A DNA stretch of 64,000 nucleotides from a phage. The stretch lies in the sequence record PZ154897.1; one strand, given 5' to 3'. A program made the position numbers and the translations under genes. Positions 11,763-34,519 of this stretch are shown piece after piece. The notes under the pieces are model-generated. The model was given only the letters and a program-made list of their open reading frames with translations. It was not told where the DNA came from and did not search any database. How positions within the stretch are numbered: the stretch's first letter is position 1; every line of letters starts with the position of its first letter.

Positions 11763-14026
11763 TACAATTTACACGCTGCGCAATCATCGGCTTTTGGAGT
11801 TTCTATTTCGTAATCATCAGTACCGGAACCATCACGAGTATTATGATAATAGAAGTTTTTAATGCCATAATACCATCCGTATAGCATGTCATCAATCATT
11901 ATTGACATTGGAACCTTTCCTTTTGGAAAAATCTGCGGGTCATAATATGTATTTGCTGAAGCTGATTGACATACCCATTTAAGCATAATAGCTACCTGCG
12001 TAAGATAAGGTTTATTACCTTTCTTAGCTAATTTCCATGTATAATCATATAGGTCTATGTTATGTTCAATATTGGGCACGACTTGATTAAAGGAACCCTC
12101 TTTTGATTCTTTAACAGAGACTGGTCCACGTGGAGGCTCGATACCGTTTGTACTGTTAGAAACTTGGGAAGATGACTCACATGGCATAAGTGCTGATAAT
12201 GTGCTATTACGGATGCCAAAGAGCTTAAGGTCTTCCCGCAGCGCCGACCAGTCACAAACGTATTTTGGAGCTGCGATTTGGTCAATCTTTTTATTGTACC
12301 AGTCGATAGGTAATTCGCCTCGAGACCAACGAGTGTCTGAATAATATTCGCAAGGTCCTTTTTCTTTGGCGAGCTTAATGGATGCTTTAATGAGTCCATA
12401 CTGTAATCTCTCAAATAGTTCATGTGTTAAATCGTTAGCATCTTCATAAGAAGCAAAGTTACTTGCCAGCCAAGCTGCATAGTTGGTAACACCTACACCA
12501 AGATTTCGACGCTTTTTAGCTTTTTCTGCTTCAGGAACTGGATATCCTTGGTAATCCAAAAGATTATCAAGAGCACGAACTTGAACTTCTGCTAATTCAT
12601 TAATTTTATCTTGGTCTTGCCAATCGAAGTTATCCAACACAAATGCAGATAACGTACACAATCCAATTTCGGCATCAGGACTATTCACATCATTTGTTGG
12701 AATAGCAATTTCACAGCACAAATTACTCTGACGAATAGGTGCCTTTTCACGAATAAATGGAGTATAGTTATTCGTATTATCAATGAACTGTACATAAATC
12801 CTTGCTGTTCCTGATCGTTCAGTCATGAGTAGTTCAAACAGTTCACGTGCTTTAATACGCTTTTTACGAATATTAGGGTCTTTTTCTGCGGCTTCATATA
12901 ATTCACGGAAACGGTCTTGGTCTTTAAAATAAGAATAATAAAGCTCGCCACCCATTTCATGCGGACTGAACAAAGTAATGTAGTCGTTCTTTCCAAAACG
13001 TTCCATCATCAAATCATTCAGCTGGACGCCATAATCCATATGACGGATACGGTTTTCTTCTACACCTTTGTTATTTTTCAAAACGAGAAGATTTTCAACT
13101 TCCAAATGCCAAATAGGATAATAAGCAGTAGCAGCGCCGCCACGAATTCCACCCTGTGAGCATGATTTAACAGCAGTCTGAAAATGTTTCCAAAAAGGAA
13201 TAACACCAGTATGGCGTACTTCACCTGTGCCAATCTTAGAACCTTCAGCACGAATCATACCAACGTTAATGCCAATTCCAGCTCGTTTAGAAATATATTC
13301 AACAATTGAAGCGGAAGCCTTATTGATAGACTTCAATGAATCTCCTGCCTCAATAACAACACATGAACTAAACTGTCGAGTCGGAGTACGGCAACCAGCC
13401 ATAATAGGAGTTGGCAATGAAATCTGTCGAGTAGATACTGCTTCATAAAAACGAATAACATGTTTTAATCTATCAACAGGTTCATCTTGATGCAATGCCA
13501 TTCCAATAGTCATAAATGCAAACTGTGGAGTTTCATAAATTTGACCAGTGGTTTTATCTTTAACTAGATATTTTTCTTTTAATTGCATCGCCCCGGAATA
13601 AGTAAATTCCATATCCCGCTCGTGCTTAATTTTTGATTCTAAAAATGTAATTTCTTCTGCTGAATATTTTGACAATAATTCAGGGTCGTATTTACCTTCA
13701 TTTACACAGTAAGAAATATGGTCAATAAATGAACGTGGTTCATACTGCCCATAAACATGCTTACGAAGAGCAAACATTAAACACCGTGCAGCTACGTATT
13801 GATAATCAGGCTCTTCAACCGAAATAGAATTCGCAGCAGCCTTAATTACAATGGTTTGAATGTCATCAGTGGTCATTCCATCACGGAGATATGATTTAAT
13901 ATTTTCATATAATTCATAAGGATCTACAGATGTTCCTTCAGCTGCCCAAGATAAAACTTTAATAATTTTTTGCGGGTCAAAGCTCTGAGAAACACCACTA
14001 CTTTTGATAACATTAATTAATTGCAT
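11762..14026 (-). CDS. nrdA: ribonucleotide reductase large subunit NrdA (754 aa)
   Basis: ATP-cone N-terminus, catalytic Cys motifs; same length as T4 NrdA. Confidence 0.97.
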   Translation of the reverse strand: MQLINVIKSSGVSQSFDPQKIIKVLSWAAEGTSVDPYELYENIKSYLRDGMTTDDIQTIVIKAAANSISVEEPDYQYVAARCLMFALRKHVYGQYEPRSFIDHISYCVNEGKYDPELLSKYSAEEITFLESKIKHERDMEFTYSGAMQLKEKYLVKDKTTGQIYETPQFAFMTIGMALHQDEPVDRLKHVIRFYEAVSTRQISLPTPIMAGCRTPTRQFSSCVVIEAGDSLKSINKASASIVEYISKRAGIGINVGMIRAEGSKIGTGEVRHTGVIPFWKHFQTAVKSCSQGGIRGGAATAYYPIWHLEVENLLVLKNNKGVEENRIRHMDYGVQLNDLMMERFGKNDYITLFSPHEMGGELYYSYFKDQDRFRELYEAAEKDPNIRKKRIKARELFELLMTERSGTARIYVQFIDNTNNYTPFIREKAPIRQSNLCCEIAIPTNDVNSPDAEIGLCTLSAFVLDNFDWQDQDKINELAEVQVRALDNLLDYQGYPVPEAEKAKKRRNLGVGVTNYAAWLASNFASYEDANDLTHELFERLQYGLIKASIKLAKEKGPCEYYSDTRWSRGELPIDWYNKKIDQIAAPKYVCDWSALREDLKLFGIRNSTLSALMPCESSSQVSNSTNGIEPPRGPVSVKESKEGSFNQVVPNIEHNIDLYDYTWKLAKKGNKPYLTQVAIMLKWVCQSASANTYYDPQIFPKGKVPMSIMIDDMLYGWYYGIKNFYYHNTRDGSGTDDYEIETPKADDCAACKL

Positions 14027-17011: not shown

Positions 17012-17046
17012 GTAATAGTATCACACTACTACCCTGTTGTAAACTA
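17012..17046 (-). promoter_or_regulatory. T4-type early promoter (GTTTAC, 18 nt, gtgtgaTACTAT)
   Basis: revcomp of 17039-17044 is GTTTAC; conserved downstream TACCCTATCAACTA. Confidence 0.6.
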
Positions 17047-17424
17047 CTTTTTGAAAGTTTTTCGCAAAAGTTCAATGATTTCATCTACATTGTTTTCGTC
17101 TACAATGCAGTGAATTTTTGTTACGCCAGAAACCTTGTCTTCTATTTCATCTTCTTCAGAAGTCGGTTCTTTATACTCGCGGAAACAATGAAATTCGTCT
17201 TCGCAAATTTCTAAAAGTCTATCTTTGAGGTAAAAATGCTTTCCATTTGCGCATTCAATGTGTTTTACTGCTTTATATCCATTAGCGACGGAAACTTCTT
17301 TAACTTCAAACCATCCGCCATTATCTCGAATAGCTTTAACTATTGATGAATTAGAACGTGGGCTATAATTAATAAATGTATCAATAAGTCTTGGAACAAG
17401 TTCATATTTTCTACCAGTATACAT
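17044..17424 (-). CDS. hypothetical protein (126 aa)
   Basis: ORF in array. Confidence 0.45.
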   Translation of the reverse strand: MYTGRKYELVPRLIDTFINYSPRSNSSIVKAIRDNGGWFEVKEVSVANGYKAVKHIECANGKHFYLKDRLLEICEDEFHCFREYKEPTSEEDEIEDKVSGVTKIHCIVDENNVDEIIELLRKTFKK

Positions 17425-17444
17425 TGCGTTTTCCTCATTTTAAT

Positions 17445-17462
17445 AGGGGCTTGATAGCCCCT
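17445..17462 (-). other. intercistronic GC hairpin (AGGGGC-loop-GCCCCU)
   Basis: 6-bp GC stem between ORFs. Confidence 0.4.
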
Positions 17463-17468
17463 TGATAA

Positions 17469-17696
17469 TTACTGCTCAATAAATCCTGTGTAAAATTCTA
17501 CATCTTCAGCATCCATACCGTCACAATATTCATTAACCATAAATTGTTTAAGACGATTTAAAGGACCTTCAATAACAACTGAAACATTGCAATTAGGATC
17601 ATTTAGTGCGCTTGTAATACGGAGTTCAGGATAACGATTACGAATAATTTCTTCAATATATTCAAAATCAACAACATCAATATCAATTTTAGCCAT
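17469..17696 (-). CDS. hypothetical acidic protein (75 aa) with own SD; also forms the C-terminal part of the gene 32 read-through frame
   Basis: ATG at 17696 preceded by AAGAGGAAAA. Confidence 0.5.
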
Positions 17697-18647
17697 GTTA
17701 TTTTCCTCTTTAATCATCATCAGCAGTATTGCCGATAGTTGTATAGTACCACAGTATGCTTTGGGGTCCGTGTCATCAGCACTAGATGAACTGCCAGAGC
17801 TTGAGCTCATAAAATCATCTTCAGTTTTTGTTTTGAAGTCATCAACATTGAATGCATCCAAATCATCAGCAACTTTATCAGCTTTCTTAGCGGCAGTTGC
17901 TGCGGCACCACCCATAGCAGCAGTTCCCATAACTTGACTGAACTTAGTGCTCAGTTCTTCAAACGATTTGAATTTATCTTTAGAAGTCATTTCAGAAAGG
18001 TCAACCATTTGTTCGAACAGTTCTTTCTGGAAAGATTCATCATCAATGTTTGGAATCGCAGATTGATTCAGGAATTTAGATTCGTCGTAGTTACTAAAAC
18101 CAGAAACTTGTTTAACTTTCAGTACAAAGTTAGCACCTTCCCACGGACAAGTTACATCAACAGGAGTTTCACCCATTTCAACATCAACTGCAATCATTGC
18201 ATTGATTTTATCCCAGATTTTCTTACCGAAACGATATTTAAATACTTTACCTTCATTTTCTGGAGCAGCTGGGTCTTTTACAACAAGAATGTTAGCCCAG
18301 TAAGAAGTTTTACGTTTAACAAGACCGTACTCTTTATTGTCAGTGTTATACAAATCATTTTTACTGATGTACTGACATACTGGACAAGAATCGTAATCAC
18401 CGTAGGTAGATGAGCATGTTTCGATATACCATTTACCATTTTTCTTGAAACCGTGATTTACAAGAAGTGCGAATGGTGCTTGTTCATCATTTTTAGACGG
18501 AAGAAAACGAATTACTGCTTGACCGTTACCCGCATTATCGAGTTTCAGTTTCCACTCGCCTTTATCTTCAGAAGAAAAACCACCTTTATTTCCAGCCAGT
18601 TTAGCCATTTGTGCAGCGAGTTCAGCAGTAGATTTACGTTTAAACAT
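17469..18647 (-). CDS. 32: single-stranded DNA-binding protein gp32; frame lacks a stop at the T4 position and continues to 17469 (392 aa)
   Basis: residues 1-294 match T4 gp32 through ...SSSSADDTD; the last 8 codons and stop of T4 (LDDLLNDL*) are absent and replaced by a promoter-like repeat. Confidence 0.85.
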
Positions 18648-18700
18648 TTTTATTTCCTTTTTTAATTTAATTAACAGTTGGTGCTATGACACTTTACCTC
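18648..18700 (-). promoter_or_regulatory. gene 32 translational operator / AU-rich leader
   Basis: minus strand ...UUAAUUAAAUUAAAAAAGGAAAUAAAAAUG, the classic gp32 autoregulatory leader. Confidence 0.65.
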
Positions 18701-19331
18701 ATAGCTGGCATAATTCGCAATACTCTGGGTCTTCGAGAGGTATCCAACCTGAGTTGAAATACTTTACCATCGATTTAGCAGTTGTATCAGTTATATTTAT
18801 ATTACCTTTAACTCTTCGCCATCCAGGAGTTTTACCGTACAGATTAGAGGATAATAATAACACATAATTCTCGTAAGCAATATGAGATAATTTCCAAGAC
18901 TCTATATTAGCTCGTGATGTTTTCCAAGGTCTAAAATCGTCACGGTTCATATAATTAGCCAATCTCATATGCTCTCTAACTTCCGGGTCTTTGGCTGGAT
19001 GAGTTTCACCACTCACACCAAATCCGCCGCCAGCATATACCAGATTAAAATAGTCTGGATTATCTCTGGCATTTACTTCAAGTTGGTATTTTCGCTCTGC
19101 TTCAATAACATCCAAATCATCATCAATTTGAATTATTTTAACGCTCGGTTTTTGAAGCATTACCGCATTTAAAAATCTTTTTTGTTTGCACGAGCTCCAG
19201 TATTCCTTTCCGGAAGAGTCATATATTATTCCATTCTCAAATGAGCAATTTAATTTACTGCCGATATAGTAGTACGGCGGAGTCTTATTTTTGACACGGT
19301 CTTCAAATGTAAACCAATATACTATATTCAT
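18699..19331 (-). CDS. segG: GIY-YIG homing endonuclease, SegG-like (210 aa)
   Basis: N-terminal IVYWF...YYYIGSK GIY-YIG motif; between genes 59 and 32 as T4 segG. Confidence 0.65.
   Translation of the reverse strand: MNIVYWFTFEDRVKNKTPPYYYIGSKLNCSFENGIIYDSSGKEYWSSCKQKRFLNAVMLQKPSVKIIQIDDDLDVIEAERKYQLEVNARDNPDYFNLVYAGGGFGVSGETHPAKDPEVREHMRLANYMNRDDFRPWKTSRANIESWKLSHIAYENYVLLLSSNLYGKTPGWRRVKGNINITDTTAKSMVKYFNSGWIPLEDPEYCELCQL
18794..18801 (-). promoter_or_regulatory. candidate late promoter TATAAATA about 150 nt upstream of gene 32
   Basis: exact TATAAATA on minus strand inside segG 3' end. Confidence 0.35.
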
Positions 19332-34439: not shown

Positions 34440-34519
34440 TTTCTAATCTCCGTAATTCTGTATCAGTAGTTGATAGTTGTATAGTACCACAGTATGCTTT
34501 GGTCGGCTCTCCCTAAAAT

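Follow-up and report, generated by a model that had tools for sequence, protein, structure and literature searches.

In the 64,000-nt stretch of phage DNA analysed here (sequence record PZ154897.1; hereafter the window), gene 32 lacks its last codons and runs in frame into frd.3, giving a 392-aa open reading frame (ORF). On comparison with related sequences, this gp32–Frd.3 fusion is probably an artefact of assembly or consensus calling rather than a real change in the phage, which most probably makes a normal gp32 (301–302 aa) and a separate 75-aa Frd.3. The original prediction had offered either a real recombination product or an artefact; a paired gap upstream of motA, the haplotypes that carry the deletions, and a single unstable base in phage phiC600P9 favour the artefact and disfavour the real product. 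The joint damage to both copies of a repeated promoter and the instability of the junction base are direct observations, and biology offers no ready account of many deletions that are independent, near-identical and free of microhomology.

The open reading frame as written

The ORF is confirmed as residues 1–294 of gp32, a 23-codon linker and full-length Frd.3 (Table 1), in agreement with the original prediction that gene 32 has no stop codon at the T4 position and reads into the next ORF. Residues 1–294 align with residues 1–293 of T4 gp32 with 285 of 294 identical, ending at ...SSSSADDTD, exactly as far as the match had been foreseen to extend, and the gp32 core is recognized by PF08804 (E = 9e-66, residues 40–240, profile positions 1–208 of 208). 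The linker is non-coding DNA read in frame. It begins with a remnant of the frd.3 early promoter, comprising 16 of the 17 spacer bases and then the TG-extended −10 TACTAT at 17748–17743, and continues with the frd.3 leader, in which the Shine–Dalgarno sequence GAGG (17707–17704) and the frd.3 ATG (17696–17694) are both retained. The extended −10 (TGnTAYWAT; TGG TACTAT at 17751–17743) is found in the motA copy of the promoter as well. The linker and the Shine–Dalgarno-led 75-aa downstream ORF of the original prediction are thus both present, and that ORF is frd.3: residues 318–392 cover PF05798 positions 1–75 of 75, with their own ribosome-binding site and start codon, and are 69% identical to T4 Frd.3. 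In T4, N2 and all the ENA and Logan contigs examined, Frd.3 is encoded separately. Directly upstream of gene 32, the window SegG has no Pfam match at E ≤ 0.001, though the T4 annotation places it in the GIY-YIG family.

Table 1. Features of the gene 32 and motA regions in window coordinates. A slash marks the join at each junction.
Feature	Position	Strand	Remarks
ORF as written (gp32 1–294, linker, Frd.3)	17469..18647	-	392 aa
Gene 32 codons 1–294	17766..18647	-	PF08804 core at residues 40–240; 97% identity to T4 gp32 1–293
23-codon linker, codons 295–317	17697..17765	-	frd.3 early-promoter remnant and frd.3 5′ leader
frd.3 coding sequence, 75 codons	17472..17696	-	Stop 17469–17471; full-length PF05798
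Gene 32 junction	17764..17765	-	GGACC/CCAAAGC; no microhomology
31-bp exact repeat, shared with motA upstream region	17734..17764	-	Equals 34472–34502
Second promoter-remnant copy, upstream of motA	34472..34503	-	motA ATG 34439–34437
Second junction, GAGCCG/ACCAAAGC	34503..34504	-	49 bp missing relative to T2, SholemSchwarzbard and Aplg8
frd.2	17044..17424	-	PF03197; exact-match probe for independent assemblies of the locus
segG, 210 aa	18699..19331	-	99% identity to T4 SegG; directly upstream of gene 32

A 107-bp gap at the end of gene 32

When the window is aligned with N2, T4 and other intact relatives, 107 bp prove to be missing from it at the junction, and most of the 503 matching phage records have ∼107 bp extra relative to the window. 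The coding part of the missing segment, TGGATGACCTTTTGAATGACCTTTAA, holds the last eight gene 32 codons and the stop (LDDLLNDL, then stop); the remainder holds GGGGACCCTAGAGGTCCCC, a hairpin that has a T-run attached, as well as an A/T-rich tract and the −35 element (...CACAAAACGGTTTACAA). The eight codons and stop are indeed missing, as had been proposed, but the true loss is these 107 bp, with terminator hairpin, A/T-rich tract and −35 included. The divergence had been placed at 17765/17766; in nucleotides the junction is 17765/17764, since codon 295 has its first C in common with the intact gene. A 1–2 nt indel or a missed stop near the junction, which had also been considered, does not account for the difference, a clean 107-bp loss paired with a loss at the other promoter copy.

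N2, T4 and every intact contig have the terminator GGGGACCCTAGAGGTCCCC-T7 in the interval from gene 32 to frd.3, and a search of 17300–18800 for an intrinsic terminator of gene 32 found no terminator-like site. The early-promoter −35 hexamer and its upstream A/T tract are missing from the window both at 17764/17765 and at 34503/34504, and intact relatives keep them at both sites. Phage N2 is ∼99% identical to the window across 601 bp spanning the junction. The nearest relatives are not the same on either side of 17765: two contigs show ∼98.9% identity to the window upstream of it (gene 32, segG, 59) but only ∼93–94% downstream (frd.3 onward). Mosaicism of the ordinary kind at a promoter cassette would account for this; otherwise it hints that the join is chimeric.

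The missing codons encode a strongly conserved tip. Scored at the C-terminus or no more than two residues from it, the motif [LI]D[DEAS][LI]Lxx[LMFI] occurs in essentially all of ∼120 gp32 homologues of 280–320 aa, down to ∼57% identity; the window ORF has other residues in its place, a loss that, judging from this conservation, should be costly. The original prediction had the acidic tip contacting other replication proteins. Conservation of the motif supports this indirectly, but the Dda-binding site of gp32 maps to residues 248–270 (PMC11551737), so that the extreme tip is unsupported as the Dda contact; the 248–270 helix is kept in the window ORF, and the literature consulted names no partner for the last eight residues.

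A paired gap upstream of motA

The 31-bp exact repeat of Table 1 is the longest in the whole window. Shifted by one position, the promoter-like 31-bp element that had been reported to recur upstream of motA does so, at 17735–17765 and 34473–34503, with one mismatch and a chance expectation of 0. At the motA copy, 16.7 kb from the gene 32 gap, the 49 bp missing from the window take away the −35 GTTTACA along with the A/T tract and T-run, and also the hairpin’s 3′ arm in the terminator of motA.1. In both gaps the right breakpoint falls at the same promoter position, and the left breakpoint at motA lies inside the hairpin loop. Intact phages have a near-identical ∼80-bp repeat at the two sites; when the window is restored at both gaps, k-mer multiplicity (k = 13–31) gives a 55-bp exact two-copy repeat.

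These gaps stand apart from the rest of the window, where the 13 other early-promoter-like sites all have a −35 and an A/T tract, and where the remaining indels relative to Aplg8 and phiC600P9 are clean whole-ORF cassettes. Positions 12975–13137 of phiC600P9 (window ∼1725–1730) hold ∼155 extra bases missing from the window and from Aplg8; this stretch contains the tRNA-T-arm-like sequence GGTTCCGGGTTCGATTTCTCG on the other strand.

Other phages with the junction

The gene 32 3′ end has been lost in eight distinct GenBank phages (CrRp10, phiC600P9, vB_Eco-B1.1, GEP001, TB004, Sfk20, SP21535, and IME537), found with a junction-spanning query that gave single-piece matches in only a few records. 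One class, with 107 bp missing, has a 1179-nt SSB CDS (CrRp10, phiC600P9 in two records, vB_Eco-B1.1, and GEP001); another, with 106 bp missing, encodes a gp32 of 311 aa that ends in a new tail (TB004, Sfk20, and SP21535). IME537 has a 1209-nt CDS for a 402-aa fusion at a different, untidy junction, GGACC/CATTTTTTTTTTTCACAAAACGGTTTACA, containing a T11 run seen in none of the intact phages examined. Relatives whose annotation has this extended gene 32, the existence of which the original prediction had raised, are therefore on record (the 1179-nt CDS in four phages and the 1209-nt CDS in IME537), and the pattern among them speaks for a common error rather than a common allele.

The motA-upstream deletion is present in all eight gene-32-deleted GenBank phages (8/8; hypergeometric p ∼1e-15), as GGCTCTCC/AAAGC in most, GGCTCT/ACCAAAGC in TB004, and ...CTCCCT/CCAAAGC in IME537. 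At gene 32, every affected record has the same left breakpoint, after GGACC, and junctions across the affected phages vary by 1–10 nt. The window resembles these records in its GGACC breakpoint, its terminator loss, its paired motA-upstream deletion and, with IME537 excepted, its −35 loss; it differs from them in carrying segG and in having its own motA junction (GAGCCG/ACCAAAGC), and it is only ∼93% identical to phiC600P9 over 24 kb. A deletion of the motA-type promoter is also seen in Yersinia phage ZN18, where the gene downstream of that promoter is not motA, and in PQ871103 (ZCEC15).

The adjacent segG, at 99% identity to its T4 counterpart and directly upstream of gene 32, had led the original prediction to name SegG as a plausible driver of gene conversion; in this reading SegG-driven conversion or repair would have produced the truncated 3′ end. 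We regard it as very improbable indeed, and the claim falls: phiC600P9, CrRp10, GEP001 and B1.1 have the same junction but no segG, the other affected phages lack segG as well, identical SegG sits beside an intact gene 32 in 10 of 10 independent contigs among those listed, and the paired deletion 16.7 kb away is left unexplained.

Two properties of the affected records bear on whether the deletions are real. At least five promoter-spacer/flank haplotypes carry them, and each of these haplotypes is also found in intact phages. In addition, the two phiC600P9 records, MT630408 and MZ681930, match throughout 49,664 aligned positions but for a single base (record position 142705), namely the junction base of gene 32, GGACC[C/T]CAAAGC (chance ∼1e-5). 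The T is the base that follows GGACC in the intact gene 32, and the C is the base that precedes CAAAGC in the intact promoter; this is the pattern of a consensus call where reads from two non-adjacent sequences abut.

Were the deletions real, certain T4-like phages would genuinely be without the terminator, A/T tract, and −35 in each of the two early-promoter cassette copies, and would make a tip-less gp32 fused to Frd.3 (107-bp class) or given a short new tail (106-bp class); selection against the shared sequence, e.g. by nuclease targeting, or recombination at promoter/stem-loop cassettes could be the cause. The junction has after all been deposited for at least eight isolates, from France, China, Poland, India, and Malaysia, weak promoter activity from the TG-extended −10 that remains is conceivable, and loss of both copies is how escape from a sequence-specific nuclease would be expected to look. 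We nonetheless think this reading unlikely, as it requires at least five independent, near-identical events without microhomology on different haplotypes, a perfect pairing of two rare events, and the loss of a near-invariant gp32 tip motif, and it is faced with a phiC600P9 junction base that varies between two records, one of them matching the intact gene, and with the independent assemblies described below. Its fuller version, in which the module has gone repeatedly from both cassette copies in some wild T4-like phages (for example, in escaping a factor that recognizes the shared ∼40-bp sequence), which would replicate with a tip-less gp32–Frd.3 and express motA without an early −35, strikes us as distinctly unlikely.

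Independent assemblies of the locus

An exact-protein look-up of the 392-aa product returned no match on record; gp34 of the window likewise had none, so its source strain is absent from that collection. The fusion protein on record comes from phiC600P9 in NCBI only, with none from Logan or ENA. Contigs in NCBI, ENA, and Logan with the exact Frd.2 or SegG of the window encode a separate gp32 (301–302 aa) and Frd.3, phiC600P9 being the sole exception, and all contigs with either exact protein lose alignment to the window precisely at 17765. The junction was found in none of the ENA and Logan contigs examined. The distribution is thus not that of a natural fusion: the junction is confined to a few NCBI isolate records, and its base is unstable in phiC600P9. 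Scans of IMG/VR and JGI metagenome contigs for the junction pattern gave 0 matches, a result without weight because only 1 and 3 intact copies, respectively, are present there.

Three Logan contigs (SRR31216277_40811, SRR3578151_86, and SRR23946462_28713) stop inside the segment missing from the window. These independent contigs, built at k = 31, have their first bases in the A/T tract/−35 upstream of frd.3 (TTTTTTATTTCAAAAATTTTTTCAC... and TCACAAAACGGTTTACA...), direct evidence that graph assemblies break in this stretch; among T4-like phages the repeat here is therefore one that breaks contigs generally.

How the join may arise

The artefact that we favour would start from the layout of real T4-like genomes, in which gene 32 ends in ...DTD-LDDLLNDL and the stop, a G+C hairpin terminator comes next, and an early promoter driving frd.3 lies after that. 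The promoter reads, in order, T-run, A/T-rich upstream tract, −35 GTTTACA, 17-nt spacer, and extended −10 TGnTACTAT. Its terminator-proximal half is multi-copy, with a near-identical ∼80-bp copy upstream of motA, and short-read graph assemblies break in the repeat. Some pipelines appear to join the flanking contigs with the ambiguous stretch omitted, by a software step that we infer. As it happens, the reading frame of gene 32 continues across the join into the leader and coding sequence of frd.3, and a 392-aa ‘SSB’ is what gene callers report as a result.

CLC software can join contigs minus an ambiguous region of the graph, and can drop uncovered columns when contigs are updated from reads; either step could be the source of such joins. 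Both affected phages that have published methods (2/2) were assembled with it: the CLC assembler was used for CrRp10, and CLC Genomics Workbench "with reads map back option" for Sfk20. For CrRp10 the paper gives 171.5 kb and 267 CDSs, and GenBank MG775043.2 has 168,403 bp and 264 features; the AVX... protein accessions of its SSB CDS and of one other CDS belong to a later series than the AUV... accessions of the CDSs around them, suggesting that the record was revised at the SSB gene. Counting against the artefact, the same extended CDS has been deposited for isolates of several countries, which at face value resembles replication.

The fixed left breakpoint places limits on simple models. It lies 60 nt before the start of the repeat, and the k-mer multiplicity profile of the restored window (k = 13–31) does not reproduce it; simple de Bruijn collapse was accordingly rejected as a sufficient model. 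The 31-bp remnant was likewise considered as a k-mer overlap signature and set aside, given a mismatch within it in phiC600P9 and differing spacers in Sfk20 and SP21535. Microhomology-mediated deletion through shared ACGG or ACC predicts junctions that were not observed.

The terminator’s 3′ arm (GGTCC) is the complement of GGACC, which also repeats part of the 5′ arm, so a hairpin-related jump, in the library or in graph simplification, is possible. One form of this is polymerase template-switching during library amplification across the hairpin- and A/T-rich region, in which GGACC of gene 32 would pair with GGTCC of the terminator, the junction would exist in some sequenced molecules and not in the phage consensus, and the assembler would prefer this shortcut over the tangled repeat. 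The left breakpoint directly after GGACC, the motA left breakpoint of the window in a hairpin loop, and the fixed, sequence-determined position expected of a structure-driven jump are all consistent with it. The right breakpoint lies 45 nt past the hairpin, which the hairpin does not explain. We consider template-switching quite improbable, and it would in any case be a sub-type of the artefact rather than a true alternative to it.

Implications

The extended gp32 is most likely not a real feature, and if the fusion is an artefact, then the biology is ordinary. At least nine T4-like genome sequences (the window and eight GenBank phages) would in that case carry the same error pair, which yields a spurious ‘single-stranded DNA-binding protein’, 392–403 aa or 311 aa long, and strips away the gene 32 terminator and the −35 of both the frd.3 and motA early promoters. 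The affected records may mislead comparative work on the gp32 C-terminus, promoter catalogues, and pangenome clustering, and the paired deletion upstream of motA would offer a quick diagnostic for this recurrent error. If instead the deletions are real, it would be truly surprising, given T4 replication biology, for a phage to be viable with the conserved tip of gp32 missing.

Comparison with known systems

The order of the locus is that of T4 (59 - segG - 32 - frd.3 - frd.2 - frd), with frd.3 the direct downstream neighbour of gene 32; unlike T4, the window is without the last eight gene 32 codons, the stop, the terminator, and the −35, and the frame continues into frd.3. The ORF shares the missing extreme C-terminus with the laboratory truncation gp32-A (gp32*I), which is without the C-terminal A domain. 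That truncation loses the whole C-terminal domain, whereas the window ORF lacks only the last 8 residues and has 98 unrelated residues appended.

A further comparison is with the PeSL (Promoter-early/stem-loop) cassettes of T4-type phages, reportedly described by Arbiol et al. in 2010, whose shuffling is said to have been proposed there to exchange or delete DNA between two cassettes. In intact relatives, both sites studied here have the look of such cassettes, with a stem-loop terminator followed directly by a conserved early promoter and with repeats genome-wide. The difference is in what is missing: here it is the inside of each cassette that has gone, and the 16.7 kb between the two cassettes is intact.
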